Source of the DNA: a virus
UHGV virus genome: UHGV-1369436
DNA length: 38,409 nt
Strand: one strand, 5' to 3'
The position numbers and the translations under genes are program-made. How positions within the stretch are numbered: the stretch's first letter is position 1; every line of letters starts with the position of its first letter. Shown one piece after another: positions 5,470 through 29,063 of this stretch. Under the pieces are notes generated by a model. That model searched no databases. It was not told the origin of the DNA and saw only the letters and a list, made by a program, of their open reading frames with translations.

Positions 5470-5946
5470 ATGGCTAAATCATCTTCTAGCAAGTCTGCAG
5501 ATAAGCTAGGCAGACCAAAAAGGAAATACAACGCTCCACCGGGCATGAATAACAACCCTACTGGCAAGGGCGGTTTTGGCGATAATCCACAAAACGGAGC
5601 GGGTGGTCGCTGGTCAAAAGACACCAGCATCTCGTACTGGTATAACAAGCTAGGCCGTATGACCCTCAAGGAGCTTGAAGAATTTGAGAAAAAGGGCGAT
5701 GAGCTTACTCCGTTCCAAAAGACAGCTCTCGTACGTGTTAAGCGCGCCTACAAGGGAGACTCTGAAGGCTTAGCAGAAGCTAAAGAGGTAGCAGACCGCA
5801 CAGAAGGCAAGGCCAAGCAGGATATATCTATCGACGCCAGCGATGATATGAAAACTATCATGAGAGGCTTTATTATACCAACACTACCAACGGATTGGAT
5901 CGATGAGCAAGTCGCATTGGCCCGTTCTAAACAAAGCAAAGTATGA
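5470..5946 (+). CDS. terS: Terminase small subunit (TerS). The track ORF begins at 5335; the likely start is MAKSSSSKSADKLGRPKRKY.
   Basis: Contains the motif GRPKRKYNAPPGMNNNPTGKGGFGDNPQNGAGGRWSKDT, characteristic of phage small terminase subunits. Lies immediately upstream of TerL. Confidence 0.6.
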   Translation: MAKSSSSKSADKLGRPKRKYNAPPGMNNNPTGKGGFGDNPQNGAGGRWSKDTSISYWYNKLGRMTLKELEEFEKKGDELTPFQKTALVRVKRAYKGDSEGLAEAKEVADRTEGKAKQDISIDASDDMKTIMRGFIIPTLPTDWIDEQVALARSKQSKV

Positions 5947-7504
5947 TGAGCTGCGAGAAAAGGGCTATTGGCTACCATTACCAGGCCCTCAGCAGCTCGC
6001 TATAGCGTTATCACGAGATAAGAGATTCCGTGAGATATTATTTGGTGGTTCTCGTGGTGGAGGCAAGACAGATGTGTCTATTGCTACTATTGGCGATCGC
6101 TTTGGCGACACTAGAGCCCGCCAGCTCGTCATTCGTAAAGACGCAGGAGACCTAGCGGACTTTGAGGAGCGTGCTGTAGCAGCTCTCCAGCCATTTGGAG
6201 CTAAGCTACGCCGCAATCCTATGGTGCTCTCCGCTAAAGGCTGTGGCCGTGTCATTGGTGGACACCTTCACGACGCTGAAGCTTACACAAAGTATCAAGG
6301 GCATGAGTACTGCCGTATCAATATCGAGGAGCTAACTCAGATACCAGACGAGGGACGTTATGAGAAGCTCATTAGCTCTGCTCGTAGCAAGTACAAAGAC
6401 CTATACCCTCAGGTATTCGCTACTACCAACCCAGGTGGCGCTGGCATGGGCTGGGTGAAGAAACGTTTCGTAGCACCAGACCCAGACAGGGCAGAAGTGC
6501 TCAAGATGGAGTATCCTTGGGTAGACATATACGGCAAGAAACAAGTCACACACTGGCAAATCGTTATAGATAAGCGTACAGGTATCTGGAGAGCCTATAT
6601 CCCAGCCACGATTGACTCTAACCCATTCTTGCTCGAGAATGACCCAGATTACGTGAAGTACCTCGACTCTCTCCAAGACTCAGACCCAGAGCTGTATCGT
6701 GCCTGGCGTTTTGGTGACTGGGACATTCAGTTTGGCGCTGTGTTTGAGGAGTTTCGGCAGAGTAAGCATACCTACGCCAAGTTCAGTGAGTGGGGTGTTA
6801 CAAAAGAAGCATTTGACAGCAATTACCGTGTCATGGGCATGGACTGGGGCTACAACGACGAGTGTGTACTACTGTGGGCTATGTTCGACAACATCACAGA
6901 GAAAGAGAACAGAGCGTTTATCTACCGTGAGCTACACGGTAACCACAAGCCTAAAGAGTGGTGGTGCGAGAGGATTGTGGAGATGTATCTCAAAGACCCG
7001 GTAGACTTGATAGCACTACCACATGACGCTTACAGCCACCTGGGAGGCTCTGAGACGATCGCTAAGGTGCTCAATGATACATTTGCCCGTCTTGCCCCAG
7101 ATGAGAAGCGTCCACGCATCGTACGGGCTGATAAGCTCATGAAAGATAGGAAACAGGCAGCAGTGCAGATGATTCACAGTGCTTTCGCTAACAAATCGGA
7201 TGGCAAACCTGGCCTGATATTCAGCAAATACTGCTCATACCTCATAGACACGCTACCTACCATCATCTACGCCAAGGAGTCTGGCGGTGAGGAGCTTGAC
7301 CCTAACAACGTAGACCACGCTCTAGACTCTCTCATGTACACGCTCATGACAGCCAACCGCGAGTATGGGTTCCTGGTGAATGAAGCAAAGAGAATCAACA
7401 AGCTCACCAAGCAGTCATTTACCATAAACCCAGGCGGCAGAGTAGAGGCAAAAGACATTGGAATTGATATTGCAACAGCGGTAGAGACAGATAAGCTCAC
7501 ATAA
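5903..7504 (+). CDS. terL: Terminase large subunit (ATPase plus nuclease).
   Basis: Walker A GGSRGGGKT and Walker B-like VIRKD/DE motifs. 533 aa. Positioned after TerS and before the portal. Confidence 0.8.
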   Translation: MSKSHWPVLNKAKYDELREKGYWLPLPGPQQLAIALSRDKRFREILFGGSRGGGKTDVSIATIGDRFGDTRARQLVIRKDAGDLADFEERAVAALQPFGAKLRRNPMVLSAKGCGRVIGGHLHDAEAYTKYQGHEYCRINIEELTQIPDEGRYEKLISSARSKYKDLYPQVFATTNPGGAGMGWVKKRFVAPDPDRAEVLKMEYPWVDIYGKKQVTHWQIVIDKRTGIWRAYIPATIDSNPFLLENDPDYVKYLDSLQDSDPELYRAWRFGDWDIQFGAVFEEFRQSKHTYAKFSEWGVTKEAFDSNYRVMGMDWGYNDECVLLWAMFDNITEKENRAFIYRELHGNHKPKEWWCERIVEMYLKDPVDLIALPHDAYSHLGGSETIAKVLNDTFARLAPDEKRPRIVRADKLMKDRKQAAVQMIHSAFANKSDGKPGLIFSKYCSYLIDTLPTIIYAKESGGEELDPNNVDHALDSLMYTLMTANREYGFLVNEAKRINKLTKQSFTINPGGRVEAKDIGIDIATAVETDKLT

Positions 7505-7560
7505 AGGCTAGTCTCTCTCACTCTATTTGCTGTATGATAGAGACAAACAGGAGACATAGC

Positions 7561-9690
7561 ATGCATGACGAAGACAAAGTATTTAAAGACCCAAGGGTAG
7601 ACGACATAACAACCAGCACTGGTGTGATTGATGAGCGTGATGCCCTATCTATTGATGAAGTAGATGACGCTACGCTTGTACGGCGTTTCAAGTATTGGGT
7701 AAACGACTCAGAAGCTTACTGGAATAGCAGAAGCGGTTTCAACCTACGCAACGTACGGGCACAGAATGAGCGCTACTACCTAGGCAAACAGGACAACGAC
7801 AGGCTTTACTACCACCAGGCAGACTACCGCGATAACCAGCTATTCGTTGGTATTCAAGCTGTTATAGCCTATGTCTCAGCTCGTGACCCAGGGTGTGAGA
7901 TTACTCCAGGTGATGACTCTCCAGCTAGCAAGACGCTCGCAGCACGTCTAGAAAGCGCTGTAGACCTTCACAGCCAGAAGGTACGTCTCTCACGCAAGAT
8001 CAAGGTAGCAGCCAAGAACCTCGCCCTGAAGCGTGTTGGCGTAATCAAGCTCATGTATAACCCATTCAGCAAGGAGATTGAAGCGAGGGCGCTCAACCCA
8101 GAGAAGGTTATTCTTGATCGTAACGCAGAGCTAGATGAGGAGCCACGCTTTATCTGCGAGGTATGTGAGGACACTGTAGATATTCTCATGTCTAAATTCC
8201 CAGAGAAAGAGAAGGAGATTATGAATGAGCTTGGCTTTGTGCGCAAGACCCAGAAGCTCCTCAGCACTGTTGTGGCCTACAACGAGATTTGGTTTACAGA
8301 TACTACCACTGGTGAACCACGTGAGTGTGTCGCTTGGTATTTCAACAACCTTATCTTAGATAAGAAGCTCAGCCCTATGTACGAGTACGACAACAAGGGT
8401 GTTGCTATCTGTAACTACACAGACAAGCCCACCAAGCCGTACGCCTTCTGCAATTACCTGAACGATGGTAGCCATATGATCGACCAAACATCACCTATCG
8501 AGCAGGCCATTCCTCTCCAGAACATCCTCAACCGTCGTGGTCGCCAGATCATTGACAACGCAGACACAGCTAACAGCATTAAGGTGTTCCGTGCCGGAGC
8601 TATCTCAGAGGATGACGCCAAGAAGCTCACAGGCAAGCCTAATCAGTCTGTTGTGCTCGATATTCGTGAGGACGAGCCTCTCAGCAACGCATATGGTGAA
8701 ATTCCAGCCCACTTGCTACCTAACTACGTACTACAAGACAAAGAGGACATTAAGAACAGCATCCACAACATCCTTGGTACGCCTTCTCAGTTCCGTGGCG
8801 ATGACTCGAAGCGTGACGTTGGTACACTCGGTGAAGCACAGATGATGCAGAGCCAAGCCTCTGGCCGGCAGGATGAGATTGTGCGTGAGATTGATAACAT
8901 GCTTGATCGCTACTTTAAGTTGCTCGTTCAGATGATGAAGGTGTACTACAGCAAGAACCACAAAATCTCTGGCCGTGACACTGATGGCAACTTCATCCAT
9001 GTAGAGCTATCTCGTGAGACTATCCCAGACAACGCTGTGATCGCTGTGTCACCAGGTAGCACCGTGAGTATGGACAAGAGCCGACGTGAGAACATCGCAG
9101 TGAAGCTGGCAGAGCTTGGTGTGATTGATCCATACAACCTGTTTAAGGATCTTGGCCTTAAGGACTCTAGTGAGCGTTACGAGAGCCTGGTTAAGTTCAA
9201 GACTGATCCGAACATGCTCGTGGATGAGGTGCGCAGTGAGGTACAAGATGAGGAAGCCTACATTGACTTTGCAGTCATCATGAACGGTTTCGACGCTAAG
9301 CCACGTGATGACGTGACACCGCAGCATATCCTAGCTCACAATAAGCAACTCCAGACAGACAAGTTCCTCATGGCTAACCCGAAGCTCCAGCAGAAGCTCC
9401 TGGCTCACATTGACCAAGAGGTGCTAAGTCTCAGCCAGCGTGAGAAGCTCCAACAAGCTAGCGACCAAGGCCTACTCGTAGACCCAACTATCCCTACAAG
9501 CCCAGAGATTCCAGAGCCTCAGCCACCAATGCCCGTAGACCCCTCTCAGATGCCACCAGAAGCGATGCAAGGCCAGCAGCCACCAGTAGATGGTCAACCC
9601 ATCCCTGAGCAGCCAGCACAGCCTGTAGGTGACCTAGGCGGCGTACAGGATCAAGGCACAAGCGGTATCCTCTCCGGCCTCGGGCTATAG
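7561..9690 (+). CDS. Portal protein with a Pro/Gln-rich C-terminal tail.
   Basis: 709 aa, immediately after TerL. Start set at ATG 7561, which has AGGAG 8 nt upstream (the track begins at 7534). C-terminus reads PEPQPPMPVDPSQMPPEAMQGQQPP. Confidence 0.65.
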   Translation: MHDEDKVFKDPRVDDITTSTGVIDERDALSIDEVDDATLVRRFKYWVNDSEAYWNSRSGFNLRNVRAQNERYYLGKQDNDRLYYHQADYRDNQLFVGIQAVIAYVSARDPGCEITPGDDSPASKTLAARLESAVDLHSQKVRLSRKIKVAAKNLALKRVGVIKLMYNPFSKEIEARALNPEKVILDRNAELDEEPRFICEVCEDTVDILMSKFPEKEKEIMNELGFVRKTQKLLSTVVAYNEIWFTDTTTGEPRECVAWYFNNLILDKKLSPMYEYDNKGVAICNYTDKPTKPYAFCNYLNDGSHMIDQTSPIEQAIPLQNILNRRGRQIIDNADTANSIKVFRAGAISEDDAKKLTGKPNQSVVLDIREDEPLSNAYGEIPAHLLPNYVLQDKEDIKNSIHNILGTPSQFRGDDSKRDVGTLGEAQMMQSQASGRQDEIVREIDNMLDRYFKLLVQMMKVYYSKNHKISGRDTDGNFIHVELSRETIPDNAVIAVSPGSTVSMDKSRRENIAVKLAELGVIDPYNLFKDLGLKDSSERYESLVKFKTDPNMLVDEVRSEVQDEEAYIDFAVIMNGFDAKPRDDVTPQHILAHNKQLQTDKFLMANPKLQQKLLAHIDQEVLSLSQREKLQQASDQGLLVDPTIPTSPEIPEPQPPMPVDPSQMPPEAMQGQQPPVDGQPIPEQPAQPVGDLGGVQDQGTSGILSGLGL

Positions 9691-9695
9691 ACATA

Positions 9696-9747
9696 ACCAC
9701 CTCCATTTAGATATAATCTAGGTATATATCAAACATAATGGAGGTGT
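9696..9747 (+). promoter_or_regulatory. 10-bp perfect inverted repeat CACCTCCATT…AATGGAGGTG. The right arm is the SD/start region of the downstream scaffold gene. The loop contains GATATAATC.
   Basis: Read directly. The left arm mimics the anti-SD sequence. Possible translational occlusion of the scaffold RBS and/or a promoter. Confidence 0.4.
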
Positions 9748-10793
9748 TTACATTGGCATCATCTAACACAGACCTATCAGAGATGGACTTTGACGCGCTG
9801 GTTGAGAAGGCAGAAGCCCAAGACCAGGACGACAAGGAAACGACTGACGAGGTAAAGGAACAACAAGACAACCCTACCACAGAGGAGGAAAAGAACGGTG
9901 AGGGTGAAGACACCACCGAAACGCAAGACGACGAGTCGGAAGAGACTCCAGAGGATGAATCAGACAAAGAAGAATCTGGAGAATCAAAGGAAGAGCCGAA
10001 AACACAAGGCTTATCTGACGAAGAGTTTCTAAAGGAGCTTGAGCGTCGCGGCCTTAAGGTGGCAGAAAACAAAAAGGAAGAGCCCAAAAAAGACGACAAA
10101 CCTCAGCCATGGGAAGAGCGCCCAGATGAGATTGACGAGAAGCTTTGGAACAAGTCCTCACCAGAGGAGAAGTTCATCTACAACAGCCTTGATTACATCA
10201 CTGTGAAGGGCAAGGACGGCGAGGAGCTGTCTATCAAACTGCCCACACAGCTGCCTGACGACTTTGAGTTTGCCAATAAGAAGGCAGAGGCTCAGTTCTA
10301 CAGTGCTATGAGCGCCCAAAGCTCCAAGGCAGAGAAGCTCATGAACAAGATCACCTCTGATCGTGAGCAGACGACCAAGGCAGAGAAGGAAAAGGCAGAG
10401 CTTGATGCTATTATTGCTGATGTGGATCGCCTCCAGGATGATGGTATCGTCCCAAAGATCAAGGCTAAGCCAGGTACAGAGGAATTTAACAGTGATCCTA
10501 GTGTGCAGCTAGTCAACAAGATCCTTGACTTTCGCGATGAGTACAACCGCAAGCACAAGGGTGAGAACATCAGCTCATACACAGCTGGCCTCATCTACAA
10601 GGCTAAGAACCCAAAAGAGTTTGAGACAGAGGACGACAAGCGACGTTCTAGCCAGGACAAATCACGGGAGAAAACTGCTAGCCGTGTAGCAAATAAAACA
10701 ACATCAGCCAATCGCCCAGAGTACAACCATAAGGCTTTTGGGAAGAATGTTAGTCTAACTGACATTGCAGATTACTACGCAGATCAACTATAA
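9738..10793 (+). CDS. Scaffolding protein (highly acidic, E/D/K-rich, helical). Alternative TTG start at 9753.
   Basis: Position directly after the portal. N-terminal 120 aa contain more than 40% D/E. Confidence 0.55.
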   Translation: MEVFTLASSNTDLSEMDFDALVEKAEAQDQDDKETTDEVKEQQDNPTTEEEKNGEGEDTTETQDDESEETPEDESDKEESGESKEEPKTQGLSDEEFLKELERRGLKVAENKKEEPKKDDKPQPWEERPDEIDEKLWNKSSPEEKFIYNSLDYITVKGKDGEELSIKLPTQLPDDFEFANKKAEAQFYSAMSAQSSKAEKLMNKITSDREQTTKAEKEKAELDAIIADVDRLQDDGIVPKIKAKPGTEEFNSDPSVQLVNKILDFRDEYNRKHKGENISSYTAGLIYKAKNPKEFETEDDKRRSSQDKSREKTASRVANKTTSANRPEYNHKAFGKNVSLTDIADYYADQL

Positions 10794-10811
10794 AGTGAAA
10801 GGAGAAAATAG

Positions 10812-11345
10812 ATGAATCTGGATCAAATCAATCAAGGGCTGACCGAGGATCAAATCCTTGGTAACAGCGTAACAACTCAGGCTGTAGACGGCGAGACGTT
10901 CCGTGACATTGTATACGGCATGTTTAAGCCAAACGATATGGTGGTGATTAAGAACAACGCGCCGTATCCATCAGGTTTTGCGTATATGCACATTGATGAC
11001 GAGGAGCACATCCAGCCTAACGAGTACACTAACACCACTATCCGTGGCAAGCAACGCGCTTTCCTCATCCACGCAGGTGAAGAGAAGGTTGTGCCAGGCT
11101 GGCTCGCCTACATGGCTCTCGAGCACATGTGGAAAGAGTACGCCCAGTACAGCAGCTCTGATGGCGCTCGTATGCTTGCAGACGTACAAGCTCGCACTAA
11201 GTGGCTCAACGAAGCGTACCGCGGCCCAGCTCAGTACACGACTGGCACTAAGGATACCGCAAAGGAAGAGGCAGAGAAGCCAGCACGACGTGGCCGTCAA
11301 GCTAAAGCGGAAAGTAAAGAGGAAGATCTAGGGTTTAGCGAGTAA
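10812..11345 (+). CDS. Hypothetical head-module protein (177 aa).
   Basis: SD AAAGGAGAAAA. Confidence 0.6.
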   Translation: MNLDQINQGLTEDQILGNSVTTQAVDGETFRDIVYGMFKPNDMVVIKNNAPYPSGFAYMHIDDEEHIQPNEYTNTTIRGKQRAFLIHAGEEKVVPGWLAYMALEHMWKEYAQYSSSDGARMLADVQARTKWLNEAYRGPAQYTTGTKDTAKEEAEKPARRGRQAKAESKEEDLGFSE

Positions 11346-11362
11346 ATAGCAACCCTATCTGT

Positions 11363-11413
11363 AGCCCGCCCGGGGTATAATCTCTAAAGAAGGAGAATAA
11401 CTGGGCGGGTTTT
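11363..11413 (+). promoter_or_regulatory. Hairpin CCCGCCC…GGGCGGG enclosing a 31-nt loop that carries TATAAT and AAGGAG. TTTT follows. Terminator-like element and/or regulated promoter.
   Basis: 9-bp GC-rich stem read directly. The loop motif TATAATCT is shared with the 9696-9747 element. Confidence 0.4.
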
Positions 11414-11434
11414 CGCCTGAAAGAGACAAACTGT

Positions 11435-11716
11435 ATGGATGACAAACCTCTAAACAAATGGCAAGTCAAAGAGATTATCGATGACGCCATCACCAAGCAT
11501 GAATTGCGCAAAGAAAATGACTTTGTGCCTATCTACGCGTTAGAAATATACAAAAAAGACATAGAATCACGCCTCAAAGACCTTGAGACAGACTCAGCAG
11601 AGGCTAAAGACCGTAACAAATGGCTATTTCGCCTAGTTGTGGGTGCAGTTATCACCTCATTTGTGCCAATTGTCATTGCATTGCTGTCCAACAGCAGGGG
11701 AGGGTTGCTAAGATGA
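11435..11716 (+). CDS. Hypothetical protein with a C-terminal transmembrane helix (93 aa).
   Basis: ORF track entry. ATGA overlap with the next gene. Confidence 0.5.
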   Translation: MDDKPLNKWQVKEIIDDAITKHELRKENDFVPIYALEIYKKDIESRLKDLETDSAEAKDRNKWLFRLVVGAVITSFVPIVIALLSNSRGGLLR

Positions 11717-12465
11717 GAAAGAATCGTGTCATTCGATGGTTTAAAAGAGAAACACTACTAAAAATCCTATCAATCATGATGATTTTAAGCCTTTTATTCA
11801 GTGGCTACACTATCTACAAGGTATTTACGCTCAAACCAGGCCAAGCAGTGACCATATCTGGCGGCACGAAGGTAGAAAAACCCATTACAAACATCACTAA
11901 CGCTCAAATAGACAAGGACGGCAACCTTGTACTCACTTATTCAGACGGAGAGGCACGCAATGTAGGCTCTATCGTAGGCTCTAACGGTAAAGATGGCGCT
12001 GATGGCAAGACACCAACTAACTCAGAGATAGCATTAGCCATCAAGACGTACTGTCTCACCAACAAATGTTCAGATAACCCCACGAGCGCCCAGGTAATGA
12101 GTGCTGTTGCTGCTTATTGCTCAGGTGGTATATGTAACGGTACGAACGGTAAGAACGCATCAGACGAGCAAATAGCGACTGCTGTGGCTAAATACTGTGC
12201 AGCAGGACTGTGTAGGGGAGATAAAGGCGCTACGGGTGCGACAGGGGCTACAGGAGCGGCAGGAGCTAATGGCATCAATGGTGTTGATGGCAAAGACGGT
12301 AAGGACGGCAAAGACGGCGCGTCTCCACAGCTATCATGTGTCAACATCAAGGACAATTCAGGTAACCAAACATCATGGGTAGCATGGAAGTACGAAGGTG
12401 AAGTAAACACCGCGTACCGTAGGCTATACAAGATCGCTGGTGACAGTAACTGTATTAATATTTAA
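11713..12465 (+). CDS. Collagen-like (Gly-X-Y) repeat protein with an N-terminal membrane anchor and Cys-rich repeats.
   Basis: Start at ATG 11713, which has a GGGGAGGG SD. N-terminal TM segment LLKILSIMMILSLLFSGYTIY. Three CxxxxC repeats (YCLTNKC, YCSGGIC, YCAAGLC). GDKGATGATGATGAAGANGINGVDGKDGKDGKDG. Confidence 0.65.
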   Translation: MRKNRVIRWFKRETLLKILSIMMILSLLFSGYTIYKVFTLKPGQAVTISGGTKVEKPITNITNAQIDKDGNLVLTYSDGEARNVGSIVGSNGKDGADGKTPTNSEIALAIKTYCLTNKCSDNPTSAQVMSAVAAYCSGGICNGTNGKNASDEQIATAVAKYCAAGLCRGDKGATGATGATGAAGANGINGVDGKDGKDGKDGASPQLSCVNIKDNSGNQTSWVAWKYEGEVNTAYRRLYKIAGDSNCINI

Positions 12466-12475
12466 GGAGGTATAA

Positions 12476-13513: not shown

Positions 13514-13525
13514 AGGAGAAGTAAA

Positions 13526-13762
13526 ATGGAAGCACTAAACGTTCTCATCGTACCAGCAATCGTAAAGCTGTTCGACATGTTCAACAAGAAGGAGTGGGGC
13601 GGCATCGCTAAGGTGTTCCTCGCTATCGCAGCAGGCATTGGTTACTACTTTGTGACCGGGCACTTTGTCTTTACTGACAAGACTGTCTACGAAGGTATTG
13701 CCTTCGGCCTCCAGGCTGCTGGTCTTGTGACTGTGGCTGCTAAAGCTGGCGCAACCAAATAG
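13526..13762 (+). CDS. Holin-like small membrane protein (78 aa, two TM segments).
   Basis: Two hydrophobic segments with a charged C-terminus. Adjacent to the endolysin. SD AAAGGAGAAG. Confidence 0.5.
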   Translation: MEALNVLIVPAIVKLFDMFNKKEWGGIAKVFLAIAAGIGYYFVTGHFVFTDKTVYEGIAFGLQAAGLVTVAAKAGATK

Positions 13763-13784
13763 CTCATAATCAGCTGTTGTATTA

Positions 13785-13814
13785 TTGACCCCTAGGTATC
13801 CTGGGGGTTATAAT
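13785..13814 (+). promoter_or_regulatory. Promoter TTGACC-N18-TATAAT with a GC hairpin (CCCCTAGG-TAT-CCTGGGGG) in the spacer. The hairpin plus U-rich tail may also terminate the lysis transcript.
   Basis: Read directly. Confidence 0.45.
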
Positions 13815-13822
13815 ATTAGCGT

Positions 13823-14155: not shown

Positions 14156-14256
14156 TCTAGTAGGAGTATAATGCTTTATGCAGCGTGATCCGGAGTCCGG
14201 ACGCCGTGTGAGCGACTGTACAAGTATAATTAATTAATTTACTGTGGTTATGCATA

Positions 14257-14750: not shown

Positions 14751-14751
14751 T

Positions 14752-22317: not shown

Positions 22318-22319
22318 TT

Positions 22320-23138
22320 ATGGATTTTCAGCAACGATTAGCAGACGCAACACGATATAGGGACCAAACACGCGAGTCTTGGCACCGTGCTCAGCGTGAA
22401 GCGGACGCGGCAAAGGCTTCCTACGACGCCGCAACGTCTACAATGCCGAACTTCGGCGATGAGTTTGAGAAACGTCGCAAAGAATACCTGGAATCTGACG
22501 AATTGCGCAACCTCAAGGCTGATGTAGACGCCTCCAAGGCTAACGTAGACCGCACAAAGACGATGATTGACAAGCTGCCTGAGTCTATTAGACAGCAGTT
22601 TGGTGGTACAGCTATCACACAGGCTCAGCGAGACCTAGCTAAGCAGCAACAGCTACGAGGCCTCAGCCAACAGATGGCAGGGTACCAGGCTACATACATG
22701 ACAACCAACAATACGTACCAGAAACGCGTTGAGGACGCTTTCAGCCGCTCCATAGACGTGGCAAACAAGCATTATGACTCTATATGGGACGGCATCAGAC
22801 GACGCTACAATGACTGGCAAACCTCGCTACAGAACGTGAAGGCATGGGACAAGATGACAACAGTTGCCAACCGTAATCTCTTATCTGTCCAATCTGCTAT
22901 TGATACATACAGGTTTCAGCAGCGCCAGATGGCAGAGGAGAAGGCTCATATTGCCCGTATGAACGCGATCGATAATAGCTATATGTGGCGAGGTATCGCT
23001 ACCCAGCAGCGCCTCATCAACGAGAAAGCCGAAATTAACGAGCGTTACATGCGTGATGAGGCTAATAAAAAGCTCATTATCCAGAATTACCGCGCCGGCA
23101 ATGGTTCGTTCGGCGAATTGGAACGCAAGTACTCGTAA
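22320..23138 (+). CDS. Alpha-helical, Q-rich protein; paralog A. Shares an N-terminal domain of about 110 aa with the next gene.
   Basis: MDFQQRLADA… and shared block KLPESIRQQFGGTAITQAQR. Confidence 0.6.
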   Translation: MDFQQRLADATRYRDQTRESWHRAQREADAAKASYDAATSTMPNFGDEFEKRRKEYLESDELRNLKADVDASKANVDRTKTMIDKLPESIRQQFGGTAITQAQRDLAKQQQLRGLSQQMAGYQATYMTTNNTYQKRVEDAFSRSIDVANKHYDSIWDGIRRRYNDWQTSLQNVKAWDKMTTVANRNLLSVQSAIDTYRFQQRQMAEEKAHIARMNAIDNSYMWRGIATQQRLINEKAEINERYMRDEANKKLIIQNYRAGNGSFGELERKYS

Positions 23139-23191
23139 CGCCAGGCTTATCTACGCCTAGCGGTGTTAAATTAGAGTAAAGGAGAATAATT

Positions 23192-24127
23192 ATGGACTTT
23201 GGAGCAAGAATAGCAGACGCACAAGGTACGAAAAACGCCAGTAAAGCGGCTTTTAATAATTACCAAGCCCAATCCGACCAGGCCAAGTCGAACTACGACG
23301 CACACCTGCAAAACAGGCGGACTTATGGCGATATTTACGACCAAGCGCGTGATAAGTACATGAATACCGACGAGATTAACAAAGCTCGCGGCGTTTACCA
23401 CACTGCTCGTGACGCAGTAAACCAAATCAACACTACCATCAACAAGCTGCCAGAGAGCATCCGGCAGCAATATGGTGGCACAGGCCTCACAGAGGCTCAG
23501 AGGCAGCGTGCTTTGCAGGGCCAGCTTGGTAGTATGCAGAATACGCAGAACTATCTCAACACCAACTACCAAAACGCATCGACCGACTACAACGAGTTAG
23601 TCAACCGTGCGATGAATGAGGTGAATAATGTTGCGGCTGGCAACTACAAGACCCAGGAAGACACGACAAACATCCTCCAGGGCATCTGGAACACCTTGCT
23701 CGGGCAGCGAAACAGTGCCTACAGCCAGTACCAGCAAGATGAAAACGCTCTCGCTAATATCTATGGTGCACGAGACAACTGGGAGCTTAACCAGCAGAAG
23801 ATGGCCCTTGAGCGATGGAAGGAACAACAGGCTAGCGCACGACAAGCAGCAGCTAATGCCGCTAACTTTGGTTTGCAGAAGTACATGCTTGACCGACAAG
23901 ACGCTTCTAACGCCTCAGCTCGTGCTTGGCAAGAGAAGATTGCAGCCGCTCAAAACGCAGCTCGTGCTGAAGCTAGTCGCCTCGGCCGTGTGCAAGCTGA
24001 TCACAACCGTATTAACAACCATAACTACTTTGGCGACATCGGGAACAACCTCTCGCAAGGTTTCCGTAACGTAGCTAAATGGGGGCCGCTCGCGCTATTC
24101 GGCGGTGGCTCACTGTGGGGGAGATAA
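23192..24127 (+). CDS. Alpha-helical, Q/N-rich protein; paralog B.
   Basis: MDFGARIADA… and KLPESIRQQYGGTGLTEAQR. SD TAAAGGAGAATAA. Confidence 0.6.
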   Translation: MDFGARIADAQGTKNASKAAFNNYQAQSDQAKSNYDAHLQNRRTYGDIYDQARDKYMNTDEINKARGVYHTARDAVNQINTTINKLPESIRQQYGGTGLTEAQRQRALQGQLGSMQNTQNYLNTNYQNASTDYNELVNRAMNEVNNVAAGNYKTQEDTTNILQGIWNTLLGQRNSAYSQYQQDENALANIYGARDNWELNQQKMALERWKEQQASARQAAANAANFGLQKYMLDRQDASNASARAWQEKIAAAQNAARAEASRLGRVQADHNRINNHNYFGDIGNNLSQGFRNVAKWGPLALFGGGSLWGR

Positions 24128-24130
24128 AGT

Positions 24131-25093
24131 ATGTTTGATTGGTTATTCGGTAAAACAAAGGATCAAGCGTTGGCTAAATACCAGGACGCCGCTGATCAGC
24201 AGCAAATCAACCAGAAGGTTAACGACTTTTACAAGGAGCAGCTCAATGGTATCTACAACGATCCGGCCAACGCTGGTCTGCTTGCAGACATGCGCAAGAC
24301 TACTCCTGGGTTTGATGACGCCTGGAAAAGCCAAATGTCATCTCTAGACAGTAAGAGTGAACAACTGAAAGGAGCAGCCAGTGATGCTAACGCTGAACTT
24401 GAAAAGCAGAAAAAGAAGCAAAAGAACAATGTATTTGGCGACGGTCTTCTTGGTTCCTTTCTTAACCCTATTGCTCAAACAGTCGGTGCAGTAAGCGACC
24501 TAGCCACAGGCAACTACAAGGATCGTGACGTAGGTAGTGACCTGGCTGCCGCTGGAGAGACACTGCTCACCGCTCTGCCTGGTATCGGCGCTGCCGCTAA
24601 GGCCGCTAAGCTCGGTAAAGTAGCTGAAGGGCTTGGCGCTGTGAATAAGGCCCTATACACGATTCCTGGCTCAGCCGCTACCGGTGCTGCTATGGGTGGT
24701 CTAGACAAGATTCGCACGGGCGAGACAGATGACGCGCTGAATGGTGCACTACTTGGTGGCGTCATGGGAGGTGCTATACCGGGCGCTATGAAGGTTGGCG
24801 GTAACTTTCTCAAGAACCGTGGGCAAAACGCTATCACTCGGGCTGTGAACGGTGCTGGAGGCGATTCTGCCGCAGTGTTGGAAGCTCTACCGTCACGAGC
24901 ACTATACCAAGAAGGTTTGCGTAGCCTCGTACCTAAGAGCGCAGTAGGTAAGCTCGCTCTCGGGGGCGGTGCTCTGTATGGCGGTTCCCAGCTTATGGGC
25001 GCTCTCAACCCACAGCAAGGCGTACCGGATGAGGACGAGCAAGCTAACACACTAAATGAGTTATATAAACGACGACAAGGGGGTATGTTCTAA
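24131..25093 (+). CDS. Gly/Ala-rich hypothetical virion protein (320 aa).
   Basis: ORF track entry. GxxG-rich C-terminal half. Confidence 0.55.
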   Translation: MFDWLFGKTKDQALAKYQDAADQQQINQKVNDFYKEQLNGIYNDPANAGLLADMRKTTPGFDDAWKSQMSSLDSKSEQLKGAASDANAELEKQKKKQKNNVFGDGLLGSFLNPIAQTVGAVSDLATGNYKDRDVGSDLAAAGETLLTALPGIGAAAKAAKLGKVAEGLGAVNKALYTIPGSAATGAAMGGLDKIRTGETDDALNGALLGGVMGGAIPGAMKVGGNFLKNRGQNAITRAVNGAGGDSAAVLEALPSRALYQEGLRSLVPKSAVGKLALGGGALYGGSQLMGALNPQQGVPDEDEQANTLNELYKRRQGGMF

Positions 25094-27135
25094 TGTTCGG
25101 TGGAGTATTAAATAAATTGTTCTCTAAGGGGGCAGCAAAGTACGGCGACGACATTGTCGCCCGGCTTGCTAGTAACTACGGTGACGACATTGCTCGTTCA
25201 GCTGGTAGCGGCGTGCTCAATAATCTTATGCGGAATGAAGCAGATGACATTGCAGCTAAGGCTGTAGCTAGTGCCGCTCCAGAGGTGGTGGAAGCTGCGG
25301 CACCTAAGGTGGCTAACGTAGCTGATGATGTAGTTGAGGCGGCTGTACCGAAGGTTTCTGTTGATGATGTTCTAGAGGCTGCTGCGGCACCTAAGAATGA
25401 CATTGTACGCCAGCTCACAGATGGTGTGGACAAAGTCGCTCCTATAAACCCAAATATTGCAGATAACTATGCTGTGGAAGGGGCTACGAACAAAGCGCTG
25501 GCAGACAACAACACTCTAGCATCTAAGCTGAATAAGATCGGTGAGGCTGTAGAAGATTCTGGTAGCAACCTACGCAATAATCAGATCATTGGTGCTGTGA
25601 AAGACAAGAAGGTATTGCAGCGCGCCCCAGACGCCATTAAGTATGCAGACAAGTACGGCTTTACTGACGGGCAGTATGAAGATTTGGCGAATATCATGAC
25701 CGGCAACGAGGGTATCTTGTCGAACTTTAACAACAACGCCCTTAAAAACGCTCAGGTTAGCGCCTTAGTCCCAGATGAAGCCCGTACGAAGGCTCTGAAG
25801 GCTATCGAGAATAGTATTGCTCTTGAGCCTCATCAGAAGAAGACACTCACAAATATCATCAACACCGCTAATGATGTGCCACAGGGGAAGATAGCAGAGC
25901 GCCTAGCAGAGCGTGGAGAGAATCGTGCAGCAGCTATTGGTGAAGCCGATATTTACGACCTACATAAGGCTGTTCAGGAGCTTGAGGGTAAGGCGTACGA
26001 CATGACAGGCAAGGGCGCAGATGCTGCTCGGAAGATTGTACGTGATTATGCTGGCGACCTGAAGAAGAGCATCAACGCCGCCTCGAAGGACGTATACAAC
26101 AACCCAGACAATATCCAGGAGCTTTCAGAGGCGCTCGTAGGAGCTAACCTTTCGCCCCGTCTCACGCAGGATATTGTGAAACAACTACGAGATGGTGTAG
26201 ATTACACAACACTCCGTAGTATGCAATCACCGTTTGTCACATTGGGCCAGATCGCTAAACAGCAGAAAATGGCACCGCTCGCTGGTGGTGTAGGCGGCCA
26301 ATCGTTCAACAACCCACTCGCGCAGGTGGCAGAGGAAGTTGTAGGTAAGCCTCTAGCAGCAGCTACAGGGAAAGCTCTCCAGACGGGTGGCCGTGCGCTA
26401 CAGCTTGCATCTAAGAACAGCGACAAGATAGCTAACGGCACTAAAAACGCAGCATTGGCTGGAGCGGGGCTTCTCGCATTAGGTCAAATGAATGGTGGCC
26501 AACAGCAGGGCACTGATCAACTATCCGGAAATTCCGGACAAATCGGCGGGGCGCAGGGTGCTCAGGCTCAACAGAAAGAATTACAGCAAGCTCAACAACT
26601 CCAAGCTATGCAACAGTTGATGCAACCATCGAAGTTCGCCGGTAAAGACCGTGACCAGATTGAGCAAGCCTACATGGCAGCAGCCGCAGACAACAACCCG
26701 AAAGCCGTACAATTCTACGCCTCAATGCTCGAGCAGCTCGACAAAAAAGACGCGATGAACCAGAAACAGCTCGCAGCGTTGCAGAAGGCAAGTAGCAGTA
26801 AAACGTCGAAAGATGACCAAAAGAAGGCTGACGCAGCAAAGAAGGCAGCTAGTATTGAGACTATGTATAAGCAAGCTGGCGGTGCACAAGGCCCTGTAGG
26901 GGTGCTAAACAACCTCTTGAACAGCGCTACACTCGGTATGTTCAACCCTGGTGCATCGGCATACGAGGCTAACCAGCAAGCTCTAGCAGTCGCCCTAGCC
27001 CGCGCAGCAGGTGACAGTGGCGCTCTGTCTAACCAGGATATTCAAGGCTATAAGTCTATGTTGCCGCTCACTACAGATAGCCCACAGGCCGCAAAGCTGA
27101 AATTGCAGAACATTTACGCGCAATTAGGCCAATAA
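25093..27135 (+). CDS. Large Ala/Gln-rich helical protein (680 aa). Tape-measure-like or internal/ejection protein.
   Basis: N-terminal short tandem repeats (DDVVEAAxPKV). Q-rich segment QQKELQQAQQLQAMQQLMQ. Predicted largely alpha-helical. Confidence 0.5.
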   Translation: MFGGVLNKLFSKGAAKYGDDIVARLASNYGDDIARSAGSGVLNNLMRNEADDIAAKAVASAAPEVVEAAAPKVANVADDVVEAAVPKVSVDDVLEAAAAPKNDIVRQLTDGVDKVAPINPNIADNYAVEGATNKALADNNTLASKLNKIGEAVEDSGSNLRNNQIIGAVKDKKVLQRAPDAIKYADKYGFTDGQYEDLANIMTGNEGILSNFNNNALKNAQVSALVPDEARTKALKAIENSIALEPHQKKTLTNIINTANDVPQGKIAERLAERGENRAAAIGEADIYDLHKAVQELEGKAYDMTGKGADAARKIVRDYAGDLKKSINAASKDVYNNPDNIQELSEALVGANLSPRLTQDIVKQLRDGVDYTTLRSMQSPFVTLGQIAKQQKMAPLAGGVGGQSFNNPLAQVAEEVVGKPLAAATGKALQTGGRALQLASKNSDKIANGTKNAALAGAGLLALGQMNGGQQQGTDQLSGNSGQIGGAQGAQAQQKELQQAQQLQAMQQLMQPSKFAGKDRDQIEQAYMAAAADNNPKAVQFYASMLEQLDKKDAMNQKQLAALQKASSSKTSKDDQKKADAAKKAASIETMYKQAGGAQGPVGVLNNLLNSATLGMFNPGASAYEANQQALAVALARAAGDSGALSNQDIQGYKSMLPLTTDSPQAAKLKLQNIYAQLGQ

Positions 27136-27202
27136 TAGCCACGGTTATCGACCAATAGTGTCGTAAAATCAGATTAGTAACAACTATAAGGAGATGGAAG
27201 CA

Positions 27203-28282
27203 ATGAAGTTTTCAGAAACAGTGCAAAACATCACAAAGGACGAGTTTCTACCTCGCGTTGTTGACTTTGTTAACAACTCGAACGTTTTGACCGCTCGCGT
27301 GATGAGCAACACCAAGAAGTGGACTGGGCCAAAGGTTCAAAGTCCTACACAAACCAAGAACAGCACGACTGGTAAGTCGATCACCGACATGGAGCAGTTT
27401 GCTGTTTCTAACACCGACAACGTTAAGAACCTGAAGTGGGAACCAGCCACGGTTGTCCAGAGCGTTGTTGTGAGCCAGCTTGAGAAGGCTGTCAACCAAG
27501 CATCGAACGACAACCAGGTTGTCCGCTTGGTTGCTCAAAAGCTCGAGGAAGCTCAAAACAGCCTCGCAAACCTCATCGGTACTCAGCTTTACGGTACTGG
27601 TGCTGGCAACGACCTTGATGGTCTGGGCTTGATCGTTGACAACGGTACGGCATCTACCACTTACGCTGGTATCACCCGTGCTACGATGCCTTCGGTCAAC
27701 GCTGACGTTACAGCTGCTGCTAACGGCCTCTTGACTCTCGGCCTTATGGCTAAAGAGTTTGACGCTGTCTCAGCTGCTGGTAGCGCAAAGCACAGCCCAA
27801 CGATGATCCTCAGCGACAAGGCAACTTGGAGCCTATACGAGGAGCTGATGGGTGACAAGCTCAGCGTCCAATACAACGCTATGACTGCTCGTGGTTACAA
27901 CCGTGTTAGCGGTGGTACTCCAATGGGTACTTCTGTGCCTGCTAGCGAGTTGCACGGCTCGGCTGGGTTCGTATCGCTCGACTTTCGTGGCAAGCCATGT
28001 GTGGCAGACGACAAGGCTCCTATGGGCAAGATGTTCTTCCTCAACGAGAACTACCTGGAGTTTCGTGACCTGACCATTCCTGGCCTTGAGCGTGTGAAGC
28101 AGAAGCAGGAGGCTATCGACAGCGCTATCAGCGAGGATCAGCCTACCTGGATGCAGTTCCGCGGTTTCATGAACCCAACGAACCAGCTCGCAGAGATTGG
28201 TGCAATGGTTGTATCGGGTAACTTTATCTGTACTCAACCTCGCCGCCAGGGTGTTATCACAGGCATCACCAAGATTCGGTAG
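27203..28282 (+). CDS. Major capsid protein (HK97-like fold).
   Basis: Blocks LIGTQLYGTGAGNDLDGLGLIVDNG, SPTMILSDKATWSLYEEL and GKMFFLNENYLEF resemble the Phage_capsid family. Strong bias for GTT/GGT/GCT/CGT/AAC codons unlike neighbouring genes. Strong terminator downstream. Start at 27203 with AAGGAG spaced 9 nt. Confidence 0.6.
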   Translation: MKFSETVQNITKDEFLPRVVDFVNNSNVLTARVMSNTKKWTGPKVQSPTQTKNSTTGKSITDMEQFAVSNTDNVKNLKWEPATVVQSVVVSQLEKAVNQASNDNQVVRLVAQKLEEAQNSLANLIGTQLYGTGAGNDLDGLGLIVDNGTASTTYAGITRATMPSVNADVTAAANGLLTLGLMAKEFDAVSAAGSAKHSPTMILSDKATWSLYEELMGDKLSVQYNAMTARGYNRVSGGTPMGTSVPASELHGSAGFVSLDFRGKPCVADDKAPMGKMFFLNENYLEFRDLTIPGLERVKQKQEAIDSAISEDQPTWMQFRGFMNPTNQLAEIGAMVVSGNFICTQPRRQGVITGITKIR

Positions 28283-28306
28283 TCTAGCCTCTAGATTATC
28301 CAAGAA

Positions 28307-28330
28307 CCCCACTCCGGTGGGGTTTTATTG
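28307..28330 (+). terminator. Rho-independent terminator CCCCAC-TCCG-GTGGGG followed by TTTTATTGTT.
   Basis: Read directly downstream of the major capsid gene. Confidence 0.7.
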
Positions 28331-28354
28331 TTGTAAATAAAACTCAGAAAAGTG

Positions 28355-28383
28355 TTGACTCTATTCTTTAGATGGTGTACTAT
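28355..28383 (+). promoter_or_regulatory. Promoter TTGACT-N17-TACTAT plus conserved leader AGAGACATAGCAAACATAAGCAAGAGAGGAGATAA.
   Basis: 17-nt spacing. Member of the conserved promoter/leader family. Confidence 0.55.
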
Positions 28384-28425: not shown

Positions 28426-28689
28426 ATGGCTAAAGAAAGTAAAACTAATAAGAAAAGCCAAGACGTAATCTTTGGGGCAAACGAAGAGATTCGCCGCGCC
28501 GTAGATAAGCTCTATGTAAAAAAGACAAGCGCTATCATGACGGCAGCGATCTTTGCAGTAATGCTCTCGCTGATCGCAGCAGGTGTAGCTTTCGCGGCAG
28601 GCCTCAACACAGGCCGTACACAGGTTGAGAAGTACAACACTATCAAGGTTGTGACGAGCGAAACCGCGGGAAAAGAAAAAGCCCAGTAG
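28426..28689 (+). CDS. Small membrane protein (87 aa, one TM segment).
   Basis: Track ORF 28372..28689. Start reassigned to ATG 28426 behind the promoter, with a GAGAGGAG SD. TM segment IMTAAIFAVMLSLIAAGVAFAAGL. Confidence 0.55.
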   Translation: MAKESKTNKKSQDVIFGANEEIRRAVDKLYVKKTSAIMTAAIFAVMLSLIAAGVAFAAGLNTGRTQVEKYNTIKVVTSETAGKEKAQ

Positions 28690-28730
28690 CGAAACCAGTT
28701 GTTAAAGTAGAGCAACCTCCAGTAGCTATA

Positions 28731-29063
28731 GTGGCGCAACCAATAAAGACAGGATGCGACGCTGTGCGTGAGGAGGCCTCGAAATACAGCGGGTGGGACG
28801 TAAACACCATGGTCGCTATCGCTACCGCCGAGAGCCATTGTAGGACAGGCGCAAAAGGCGACCAAACACTAACATTTACACAAAACAATAGGGTATACGG
28901 GTATAGTCTAGGAGCTTTTCAGGTAAGGATACTCCCAGGACGAGAACACTGCGACACGTTCGACGTAGGGACTAACGTAAAATGCGCGTACGATGTGTGG
29001 AGGTCACAGGGGTACAAAGCATGGTCTGTCTACTTGAGCGGTAAATATAAAGAGCACCTGTAG
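28731..29063 (+). CDS. Transglycosylase-like (Rpf/lysozyme-like) domain protein (GTG start). Possible second peptidoglycan hydrolase.
   Basis: SGWDVNTMVAIATAESHC…GYSLGAFQV…AYDVWRSQGYKAWSVY resembles the transglycosylase-like/Rpf domain pattern (W…CES…G..Q…W…GW). Confidence 0.45.
   Translation: MAQPIKTGCDAVREEASKYSGWDVNTMVAIATAESHCRTGAKGDQTLTFTQNNRVYGYSLGAFQVRILPGREHCDTFDVGTNVKCAYDVWRSQGYKAWSVYLSGKYKEHL

Follow-up and report, generated by a model that had tools for sequence, protein, structure and literature searches.

The stretch of DNA analysed here, referred to as the window (UHGV-1369436; 38,409 nucleotides), is a genome of ~38.4 kb, in essence complete, from a podovirus-like phage that has not been cultured. 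Its podovirus toolkit is ordinary and stands in a rearranged order specific to the clade, with the gene for the major capsid protein (MCP) as the final cistron of the operon for tail and internal proteins. Relatives with the order TerL-portal-scaffold-MCP are termed canonical below, and the gene that follows the MCP in them is termed the partner gene. The features of the region are as follows:

5409-5463, plus strand: start of the late region, with a terminator-like hairpin (5409-5433; dG -17.5, z -3.6) and a promoter-like site, TTGTCA-17-TATAAT (5435-5463)
5470-5946, plus: probable TerS, by its position upstream of TerL, which it overlaps; weak PHROG match
5903-7504, plus: TerL (phrog_2, E 5.7e-36; Pfam Terminase_3)
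7534-9690, plus: portal, SU10 type (phrog_156, E 4.8e-13; PF23899, SU10_portal, 34.1 bits, cut-off 30)
9688-9717, plus: promoter-like site, TAGACA-18-TATAAT, just 5′ of the scaffold gene
9738-10793, plus: putative scaffolding protein, acidic/charged (E 15, K 12, D 11%)
10812-11345, plus: conserved 177-aa protein; in canonical relatives its gene lies 1.5-6 kb 3′ of the MCP
11435-13762, plus: lysis cassette of four ORFs
11435-11716, plus: holin-like ORF of the cassette
11713 (probable start)-12465, plus: membrane-anchored collagen-like ORF with a G-X-Y run; Pfam Collagen score below the curated cut-off
12476-13513, plus: endolysin, Amidase_2 (E 1.6e-17) and DUF4214
13526-13762, plus: holin-like ORF (weak match, phrog_1299, E 3.5e-4)
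14156-14390 (235 nt), plus: operon boundary with hairpins, between the packaging/scaffold/lysis block and the tail block
14391-17470, plus: variable tail-fibre/receptor-binding region, poorly conserved among relatives
15244-16059, plus: tail-fibre N-terminal domain (phrog_8469, E 1.4e-8)
17489-18379, plus: head-to-tail adaptor, SU10 type (PF24175, E 9.9e-15, 55.9 bits, cut-off 27)
18379-20379, plus: nozzle/tail hub, β-propeller (AlphaFold2, pLDDT 81; Foldseek)
20379-22317, plus: three conserved small to medium tail-associated proteins (86, 304 and 255 aa), their position after the nozzle being kept
22320-27135, plus: four Q/A/G-rich proteins (phrog_37153; composition), namely the paralogues 22320-23138 and 23192-24127, then 24131-25093 and 25093-27135
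27141-27169, plus: candidate MCP-proximal promoter, ACGGTT-N17-TAAAAT
27203-28282, plus: MCP, HK97 fold (PHROG profile and predicted fold)
28303-28337, plus: intrinsic-terminator-like hairpin (28303-28326) with a 10-bp GC-rich stem, then UUUUAUUGUUG, directly 3′ of the MCP stop codon
28355-29074, plus: small terminal unit of promoter-like site, membrane protein, SLT_3 protein and hairpin
28355-28383, plus: promoter-like site, TTGACT-17-TACTAT, downstream of the MCP
28426 (probable start)-28689, plus: membrane protein
28731-29063, plus: SLT_3 lysozyme-like protein
29050-29074, detected on the minus strand: terminator-like hairpin at the convergence point
29094-31945, minus: convergent operon of partner gene, GroES-like ORF, GroEL and two small ORFs
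29594-31087, minus: GroEL (phrog_5725, E 1.7e-99; PF00118)
31065-31361, minus: GroES-like ORF, by position and a homologue beside GroEL in locus L002
31463-31945, minus: partner gene, by hhalign

Packaging, lysis and tail genes

The initial annotation had read terminase, portal, scaffold, lysis, tail-fibre-like, Q/A-rich and capsid genes in this order, and the order and identities stand at the positions given. The labels TerS, scaffold, GroES and ejection protein are putative and were assigned by position and composition. Homologues of TerS lie upstream of TerL in loci L001 and L051, and a homologue of the scaffold-like protein adjoins the 5′ side of the MCP in all canonical relatives. PHROG and Pfam returned zero matches for the scaffold-like protein and for 10812-11345. 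The lysis cassette follows the holin-endolysin pattern of a hydrolase beside a small multi-transmembrane protein, with weak matches of the holin-like ORFs flanking the amidase to phrog_689 (E 2e-5) and phrog_1299. These lysis genes had been described as lying mid-module. Their position is real, but they close a separate packaging/scaffold/lysis block, which is inverted in loci L059-L067, where the inversion ends at the homologue of 13823-14155.

The gap between this block and the tail genes contains a 13-bp hairpin (14255-14285; dG -22.6, z -4.5), followed by a second hairpin with a U-run and then by TATAAT-like elements. The genes initially described as tail-fibre-like do include a fibre domain, but the SU10-type adaptor and the nozzle are also found among them. 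With PF23899 and PF24175 both above their cut-offs and a β-propeller nozzle, the neck and tail are of the SU10 type. The top Foldseek matches of the nozzle (E 4e-12 to 2e-8) are tail-complex chains of E1004, P-SCSP1u, T7, SU10, P22, Pa223 and Sf6, podovirus chains which we take to be nozzle or tail-hub proteins. This fold rules out 18379-20379 as a capsid protein, an alternative that the initial annotation had named as the one that would overturn its reading. PDB sequence searches with the nozzle and the adaptor were uninformative.

The products of 22320-27135 are probably internal (ejection) proteins, by analogy with T7 gp14-16 and P22 gp7/20/16, internal proteins which are likewise encoded after the nozzle. 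A canonical relative has Q/A-rich counterparts at this position. There were zero PHROG and Pfam matches for 20379-22317 and 24131-27135.

Promoter calls in the window are consensus matches, and only intergenic, correctly oriented, top-scoring sites were taken, as candidates; the genome-wide count of sigma-70 matches is not above shuffled expectation. The promoter-like site at 5435-5463 stops 6 nt short of the TerS ATG, so that its transcript may lack a leader. An Rfam scan of the window gave zero family matches, and no tRNA genes were found.

To judge from its proteins, the window sits in the clade that contains the TM7 (Saccharibacteria) phage DolZOral124_53_65 (MG269973). Synteny and protein similarity with this reference extend genome-wide: the genome is ~38-39 kb, the late region is wholly collinear, and both phages have the amidase in mid-region, an MCP gene that follows those for the internal proteins, and GroEL in convergent orientation. 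Core proteins (TerL, portal, adaptor, nozzle and MCP) are 46-61% identical. The window is nonetheless a different species-level lineage, with an early region otherwise arranged and different fibre genes. In the GenBank record the MCP is mis-annotated as a “homeodomain-like protein”, and no published comment on the gene order was found. The Oral Virus Database catalogue holds 344 predicted Saccharibacteria phage genomes with a mean of 35.5 kb (PMC9160773).

Megablast of 5000-29500 against 50,697 phage records gave zero matches. A tblastn search with the MCP, the portal and 23192-24127 recovered just two related GenBank records, so there is no cultured relative to supply proteomic evidence. One Saccharibacteria MAG and three Atopobium/Atopobiaceae MAGs contain near-identical contigs, the bin names being ambiguous on the host. 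The phage also encodes a WhiB-like regulator; such regulators are a hallmark of Actinobacteria and their phages.

The major capsid protein gene and its signals

The product of 27203-28282 is predicted to be an HK97-fold MCP, as had been proposed from the letters. It matches phrog_9953 over residues 9-357 (E 6.6e-66), and its AlphaFold2 model (pLDDT 72, pTM 0.71) has the HK97 fold. Foldseek against the PDB gave 165 matches at E <= 1e-3, the best being 7f38_A (E 8.2e-11, TM 0.61); the best 50 of the 165 are mostly HK97-fold capsid and encapsulin shell proteins. A PDB sequence search with the MCP profile was uninformative. The gene has a strong Shine-Dalgarno (SD) sequence, AAGGAG, at a spacing of 9 nt. 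Its GGAG (27190-27193) suits the ATG at 27203 and not that at 27194, in agreement with the start chosen initially.

The MCP had also been placed between a strong terminator and a fresh promoter; in fact both elements (28303-28326 and 28355-28383) are downstream of its stop codon. The 67-nt spacer upstream of the gene is unstructured (z +0.6) and lacks a terminator-like element, and an upstream terminator was therefore rejected. For the downstream hairpin z is -3.76, none of 200 shuffles folding equally well, and hairpins of different sequence stand at the same position in L001 and in many window-type and inverted-block relatives. No terminator was seen after the MCP in canonical relatives, which have a terminator-like hairpin in the MCP 5′ leader, 3′ of the best promoter-like site. 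The regulatory signals of the MCP vary with the arrangement, a 5′-leader hairpin being present in some and a 3′ terminator in others. The candidate promoter at 27141-27169 scores poorly against the sigma-70 consensus and aligns with a positionally conserved element of the relatives (A-tract, cAGGGTT, N17, (TGn)TAnnAT; 16 upstream regions aligned).

The codon usage of the MCP had been called distinct and apparently optimised. Its effective number of codons (ENC), at 36.1, is indeed the lowest among 40 ORFs (next lowest 44.2), and among them its A3 (0.10) is also the lowest and its GC3 (0.60) the highest. As a mark of relocation, however, this trait fails, for it is general in the MCP family: in most relatives, across all three arrangements described below, the strongest codon bias is that of the MCP. 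The bias thus reflects expression level and is neither a sign of foreign origin nor a signature of relocation.

Three late-gene arrangements among relatives

A survey of 81 loci gave three arrangements of the late genes:

Window type: L001, L003-L049, L052-L058 and L070
Canonical: L002, L050, L051, L068, L069 and L071-L081
Packaging block inverted: L059-L067

The comparison with relatives suggested in the initial annotation shows that the order of the window departs from that of the canonical relatives and matches MG269973 and many IMG/VR genomes. It is not peculiar to the window, being already present in that GenBank genome and in many metagenomic ones; it is found in ~20 near-identical genomes from at least nine different metagenomes, and dozens of independently assembled IMG/VR genomes are collinear with the window. 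Canonical relatives, with an MCP identity of 44-50%, have the order TerL-portal-scaffold-MCP, and so does a more distant outgroup. This head-module adjacency is absent from the window, where the interval from 10793 to 27203 separates the end of the scaffold-like gene from the start of the MCP. The late region does depart from the order TerL-portal-scaffold-MCP-tail-lysis, as first proposed, but is made up of several blocks and not of one module.

Profile-profile comparison links 31463-31945 to the post-MCP family of the canonical relatives (hhalign probability 99.5%, E 4.9e-23) and supersedes a pairwise BLASTP against one post-MCP protein, which was not significant. In each canonical relative a homologue is the next gene after the MCP. 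A subgroup of the window-type loci retains the partner gene 3′ of the MCP at the operon end, and in the sub-clade of the window the partner gene shares an operon with GroES/GroEL. PHROG and Pfam searches for the partner family, and PDB sequence searches with 31463-31945 and the family profile, gave nothing informative.

All trees are simple neighbour-joining (NJ) trees without support values. With L002 as its root, the portal tree has the canonical lineages at the base as a paraphyletic set and unites the window with L001 and the inverted group in one derived clade. When TerL, portal and nozzle are compared with those of the window, their identities all rank alike, with L001 and the inverted group above the canonical group and the latter above L002.

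It is likely, in our assessment, that the ancestral order was portal-scaffold-MCP-partner, that the late genes form separable blocks, and that the MCP and its follower moved to the end of the tail operon with expression signals that are local to the gene. The first block would comprise TerS, TerL, portal, scaffold, the 177-aa protein, the holin/amidase lysis cassette and one small gene. Following the hairpin-rich 235-nt gap, the second would comprise the fibres, adaptor, nozzle, three small proteins, four probable internal/ejection proteins and the MCP, and would be closed by the intrinsic terminator. From the canonical order, the MCP and the follower gene would have been translocated, in the common ancestor of the lineage, from the scaffold side to the permissive 3′ end of the adaptor-nozzle-internal-protein operon, an end that converges on the phage GroES/GroEL operon. 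Later, in the sub-clade of the window, the partner gene would have come to lie on the other strand, as the first gene of the chaperonin operon. High MCP output would no longer be tied to the neighbourhood of the scaffold gene; it would depend instead on gene-local features, namely the strong SD, extremely optimised codons, the 3′ hairpin, which would end the transcript and probably stabilise it, and possibly a separate MCP promoter.

As the MCP, in its probable new place, is beside a phage chaperonin operon, it may be asked whether its product is folded by that chaperonin. The relocation may have been selected and not neutral, bringing the MCP and the partner gene beside GroES/GroEL such that the shell and a folding machine dedicated to it are inherited, and perhaps regulated, as a linked unit within a mosaic phage population, although this is rather unlikely. 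In the window a span of 4.7 kb takes in the MCP (27203-28282) on one side of the chaperonin genes and the partner gene (31463-31945) on the other. The partner gene lies in the chaperonin operon in the sub-clade of the window, and the distance between MCP and GroEL is 1-3 kb in most window-type loci. In T4, folding of gp23 requires GroEL plus the phage co-chaperonin gp31. However, one canonical relative, pieced together from L069 and L092, already has a late operon whose end is convergent on GroEL/GroES, which makes the adjacency automatic for any insertion at the operon end. Moreover, L059-L067 have the MCP last with GroEL absent within 10 kb, and in L002 the GroES/GroEL pair is upstream of TerL. 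Somewhat more doubtful again is the proposal that the MCP and the partner gene are a self-contained two-gene “shell cassette”, able to shift its place in the genome and, in this lineage, captured beside GroES/GroEL because the MCP is an obligate chaperonin client. If true, this would be a linked capsid-plus-foldase unit, a head-assembly organisation so far unreported for small phages.

It is improbable that the MCP-last order is ancestral and that the canonical order in L050, L051 and L068-L081 arose by secondary reversion or recombination. An NJ tree of the MCP alone, rooted on L002, does place the canonical group as a single clade nested among window-type sequences, but this root is unreliable because the L002 outgroup branch is long. 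The portal tree gives the opposite picture, the outgroup L002 is itself canonical, and chance re-creation of the exact scaffold-MCP-partner adjacency is unlikely. The order portal-scaffold-MCP is also the general rule in Caudoviricetes. As the MCP tree disagrees, the polarity of the move is drawn from the portal tree, from the gradients of identity and from the outgroup, and does not have the backing of all markers.

A horizontally acquired, foreign MCP would explain both the odd position and the codon usage, and the ENC and third-position composition of the gene are outliers within the genome. This origin is most improbable and was rejected: the identity of the MCP to that of L001 (53%) is similar to the values for portal (55%), nozzle (58%) and TerL (61%), the MCP of canonical relatives comes from the same family, and strong bias across the three arrangements is what one would expect of the late gene with the highest expression. 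There is a negligible probability that the order stems from faulty assembly or from permutation of a circular metagenomic contig: the window is without a terminal repeat and looks like a permuted circular genome, so that “last” partly depends on the opening point, but wherever the circle opens, 16 kb separate the MCP from the scaffold gene and the MCP stands where the block of plus-strand genes ends, and misassembly was rejected as the order is repeated in MG269973 and ~20 independent assemblies.

Comparison with known systems

The components described here are all standard tailed-phage parts, and the view of capsid assembly is unchanged. For annotation, the gain is that the MCP, scaffold, adaptor, nozzle and probable ejection proteins can be named, the scaffold putatively, for a widespread, uncultured, Saccharibacteria-linked clade. 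Within one family the late genes can be compared in canonical, block-inverted and, on the likely reading given above, translocated form. Canonical-order relatives (IMG/VR; L050, L051, L068-L081; Caudoviricetes sp. MW202566) share the MCP, partner, portal, scaffold-like, adaptor, nozzle and GroEL families with the window. They differ in the order TerL-portal-scaffold-MCP-partner and in having a hairpin in the MCP 5′ leader instead of a post-MCP terminator.

T7-like and P22-like modules resemble the window in the sub-order of adaptor, nozzle, small tail proteins and internal/ejection proteins, and in an HK97-fold MCP with scaffold-based assembly; no protease gene was detected in the window. T7 also has a strong terminator (T-phi) after its capsid gene. 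The window differs in that the MCP is apart from portal and scaffold, the lysis cassette stands between head-assembly and tail genes, and the terminase comes first. It does not show the Autographiviridae-type synteny of portal-scaffold-MCP-adaptor-nozzle-core-fibre-terminase with an RNA polymerase, for which there were zero matches among the ORFs scanned, a set that includes part of the small early ORFs. The initial view that the order is unlike T7-like synteny is thus correct overall, although the stretch from adaptor and nozzle through the small and internal proteins follows the T7/P22 order.

SU10 (Kuravirus) is similar to the window in its portal (PF23899) and adaptor (PF24175), Pfam families built on SU10, and in the nozzle fold. 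Sequence identity is ~10%, and the window genome is about half the size. The SU10 genome is ~77 kb. With a genome of ~38.4 kb and not the Kuravirus-like ~77 kb, the window is a distant structural relative of SU10 and not a member of its group.

Identities of the late genes

The initial late-gene calls are upheld, and the identities are listed below.

Late genes of the window other than the capsid gene
5903-7504, +, TerL (PHROG and Pfam)
7534-9690, +, SU10-type portal (PHROG and Pfam)
11435-11716, +, second holin-like ORF
from probably 11713, +, collagen-like ORF, which with this start would have an N-terminal membrane anchor
12476-13513, +, endolysin, Amidase_2 and DUF4214 (PHROG and Pfam)
13526-13762, +, holin-like ORF (weak PHROG match)
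17489-18379, +, SU10-type adaptor (PF24175, E 1e-14)
18379-20379, +, nozzle (predicted fold; directly after the adaptor gene)

The gene at 27203-28282 (+) had been called an HK97-like major capsid protein (MCP), and this holds. It matches the "major head protein" family phrog_9953 (E 6.6e-66). Of the top PDB matches listed for its AlphaFold2 model (built from 37 homologues; pLDDT 72, pTM 0.71), most are capsid proteins with the HK97 fold or encapsulin shell proteins. The best match is to cyanophage A-1(L) (E 8e-11, TM 0.61), with the HK97 and SU10 capsids matched too. The initial annotation had named 18379-20379 as the alternative capsid candidate. This is rejected, as the model of its product (pLDDT 81) has a nozzle-type fold, matching podovirus tail-complex chains of E1004, P-SCSP1u, T7, SU10, P22, Pa223 and Sf6 that are presumably nozzle or tail-hub proteins; the MCP remains at 27203-28282. 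With this nozzle fold and an SU10-type adaptor, and with neither sheath nor tube nor tape-measure genes detected in the window, the virion is predicted to be podovirus-like.

At the extreme end of the late strand, 3′ of the MCP gene, 28426-29063 (+) encodes a small membrane protein followed by a 110-amino acid SLT_3 lysozyme-like protein. This pair may provide a second function in lysis or cell-wall penetration, placed canonically at the end of the module.

Late-gene arrangements and the direction of the move

A tblastn survey of the window proteins against 81 related loci (handles L001-L081) revealed three late-gene arrangements.

Late-gene arrangements among the 81 loci
Window type: adaptor, nozzle, small proteins, four Q/A-rich proteins, MCP, (SLT), convergent GroEL; MG269973 (L001) and most loci with MCP identity of 49-100%
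Canonical: TerL, portal, 9738-10793 homologue, MCP; L050, L051, L068, L069 and L071-L081 (MCP identity 44-50%) and MW202566 (L002)
Inverted block: tail block ending in the MCP unbroken, with TerL, portal, scaffold, 10812-homologue, amidase and 13823-homologue on the opposite strand, converging on the MCP; L059-L067

The unusual order reported initially is real. The late genes form at least two separable blocks, the first closed by the lysis cassette, rather than one module. The same arrangements show that the position of the MCP gene varies inside one family, and that 9738-10793 is the probable scaffold gene by position as well as composition. In the window, the block boundary is a 235-nt gap (14156-14390) containing two hairpins, one of 13 bp (dG -22.6, z -4.5) and another followed by a U-run.

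The direction of the move was read from a neighbor-joining portal tree rooted on the outgroup MW202566. Canonical lineages are basal and paraphyletic in this tree; the inverted-block group joins the window and MG269973 in a single derived clade, whose sister is the canonical pair L050/L051. Identity gradients of TerL, portal and nozzle agree with it. The MCP-only tree has a different root; this is treated as a long-branch problem, yet it is the main caveat on direction.

A conserved protein of ~238 amino acids lies directly 3′ of the MCP in every canonical relative. The window gene at 31463-31945 (-) belongs to the same family (profile-profile comparison, hhalign probability 99.5%, E 4.9e-23). 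In a subgroup of window-type loci, e.g., L026, L029, L041, L046-L048, L052, L053 and L055, this partner is still found after the MCP at the end of the operon; in the window's sub-clade it is on the opposite strand, heading the GroES/GroEL operon. The simplest history has two steps, in which a cassette of MCP plus partner was transposed to the operon end and the partner moved again later. Searches of PHROG, Pfam and PDB gave no match to the partner family, for which a capsid accessory role is possible, given its constant proximity to the MCP.

The operon that the partner now heads includes, at 29594-31361 (-), a phage GroEL (497 amino acids; phrog_5725 E 1.7e-99, PF00118) and, just upstream of it, a possible GroES-like ORF (31065-31361, -). 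It runs convergently into the end of the late operon and is kept in MG269973, MW202566 and most relatives. Such an operon is unusual in phages of ~38 kb. In a canonical relative reconstructed from L069 and L092, the late operon ends with Q/A/G-rich proteins converging on GroEL/GroES, so the chaperonin operon was probably in place first, with the MCP inserted beside it at the end of the tail operon. For this reason, the adjacency of MCP and chaperonins is more likely incidental than functional.

The same L069/L092 composite carries an HNH endonuclease-like ORF (9426-9896) between the scaffold and MCP genes; homing endonucleases located there may have facilitated the rearrangement. Separately, 20639-21553 and 25093-27135 each occur as two sharply different alleles when compared with L003-L022, genomes otherwise 93-100% identical (~57% vs 97% and ~75% vs 96%, respectively). 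Such a pattern suggests that alleles of tail-associated and internal proteins have been replaced locally.

Signals and codon usage around the capsid gene

The MCP gene had been described as lying between a terminator and a promoter. Both elements, namely the strong hairpin and its U-run at 28303-28326 (z -3.8) and the promoter-like site at 28355-28383, are in fact downstream of its stop codon, and the 67-nt spacer 5′ of the gene is unstructured. An intrinsic-terminator-like hairpin just 3′ of the MCP is found in those relocated lineages whose operon ends with the MCP itself, i.e., in the window's sub-clade and in the inverted-block group, with sequences that differ among lineages; none was found at this position in any canonical relative.

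In canonical relatives and the partner-retaining subgroup, a terminator-like hairpin and its U-run are instead located in the MCP leader, 24-62 nt 5′ of the start codon. The best promoter-like site precedes this hairpin, and in the partner-retaining subgroup it often matches TTGACA-N16-18-TATAAT at 10-12 of 12 positions. This leader hairpin is absent from the window's sub-clade, where a promoter-like element occupies a conserved position (A-tract, cAGGGTT, N17, TAnnAT). The window version, ACGGTT-N17-TAAAAT at 27141-27169, is a candidate element. A layout of promoter-like site (up to 12/12), GC-rich hairpin with U-run, Shine–Dalgarno (SD) sequence and MCP start is shared ~25-100 nt upstream of the start by L026, L033, L041, L044-L049 and L052-L055 and by canonical L002 and L068-L081; the stems vary among loci yet pairing is kept. 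The hairpin could stabilise the mRNA at its 5′ end, or it could be a leader terminator needing antitermination, as exemplified by lambda PR'-tR'.

Within the first 20 kb, the three top sigma-70-like sites (11/12 matches) are all intergenic and correctly oriented; one precedes TerS, one precedes the scaffold gene and one follows the holin gene. They fit a multi-promoter late region but remain candidates, as promoter-like matches across the genome do not outnumber those in shuffled sequence. Two of them (within 5435-5470 and 13785-13823) end 6-8 nt before the next ATG, which suggests leaderless transcripts for TerS and 13823-14155. Between 10812-11345 and the first holin-like gene, 11363-11412 forms an 11-bp GC-rich stem followed by UUUU, with a loop of ~28 nt holding TATAAT and an SD-like GGAG (region dG -27, z -2.4).

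The distinct, optimised codon usage initially ascribed to the MCP is confirmed in the window, where its ENC is 36.1 vs 44-61 in the other 39 ORFs, with the lowest A3 and highest GC3, but it is not a mark of relocation. In most relatives, in each of the three arrangements, no gene is more codon-biased than the MCP. The bias therefore reflects demand for the most abundant virion protein and is no evidence of foreign origin.

Relatives, host and comparison with known systems

The window has the character of a permuted phage genome that is essentially complete: its 38,409 bases lack a terminal repeat, plus-strand genes start at ~180 and extend to 29063, and those on the minus strand occupy 38362 to 29094. 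A perfect 22-nt tandem repeat in three copies (GTATGCGCACGGGTGCGTAGGG, 13-77) could represent iterons or operator sites; it is part of the divergent early control region and is found 5′ of a DnaD/replication-initiator-like gene (678-1724). On the minus strand, a 659-amino acid ORF (35689-37668) joins an N-terminal PD-(D/E)XK-type exonuclease part (phrog_1218, phrog_69) to a C-terminal FtsK/SpoIIIE-like ATPase part (phrog_1358), adjoining a RecT-like annealing protein (37643-38362).

Megablast against 50,697 GenBank phage records gave no match, and two of these records are related at the protein level: MG269973, the 38,840-bp TM7 (Saccharibacteria) phage DolZOral124_53_65 (MCP identity 53%), and MW202566, a Caudoviricetes genome from spring water (32%). 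In IMG/VR, at least nine metagenomes contribute ~20 near-identical genomes (38-39 kb), besides many more distant relatives, and the protein database lists 222 MCP homologues. In MG269973, the MCP homologue (18550-19626) is labeled "homeodomain-like protein" in GenBank, and the portal, adaptor and nozzle are labeled hypothetical proteins. A published catalogue (PMC9160773) includes a clade of 344 predicted Saccharibacteria phages that is prevalent in the mouth, with a mean length of 35.5 kb. No published discussion of gene order in this clade was found.

The window encodes a WhiB-like transcription factor (34380-34643, -; phrog_472 E 1e-19), and the near-identical contigs fall in one Saccharibacteria and three Atopobium/Atopobiaceae MAG bins. 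WhiB-like factors are a hallmark of Actinobacteria and their phages. Given this gene and the mixed binning, the host could be Saccharibacteria or its actinobacterial partner.

The proposed particle would have an ordinary scaffold-assisted HK97-type head and a short tail like that of T7, P22 and SU10. Separation of the MCP from the portal and scaffold genes would be tolerated because its output would be set by gene-local features: a strong SD (AAGGAG, 9-nt spacing), optimised codons, a 3′ terminator hairpin that would end the long tail transcript and probably protect the MCP-proximal end, and possibly the gene's own promoter. The results are of value for the annotation of an uncultured phage clade with a putative link to Saccharibacteria, and as a compact example of late-gene rearrangement with regulatory rewiring. 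All parts belong to known families, and the order is a clade-specific variant already present in public genomes, where it is unremarked and partly mis-annotated. Non-canonical placement of head or lysis genes is known in other phage groups, such as T4, phi29 and T7, and the present case is not a new kind of system.
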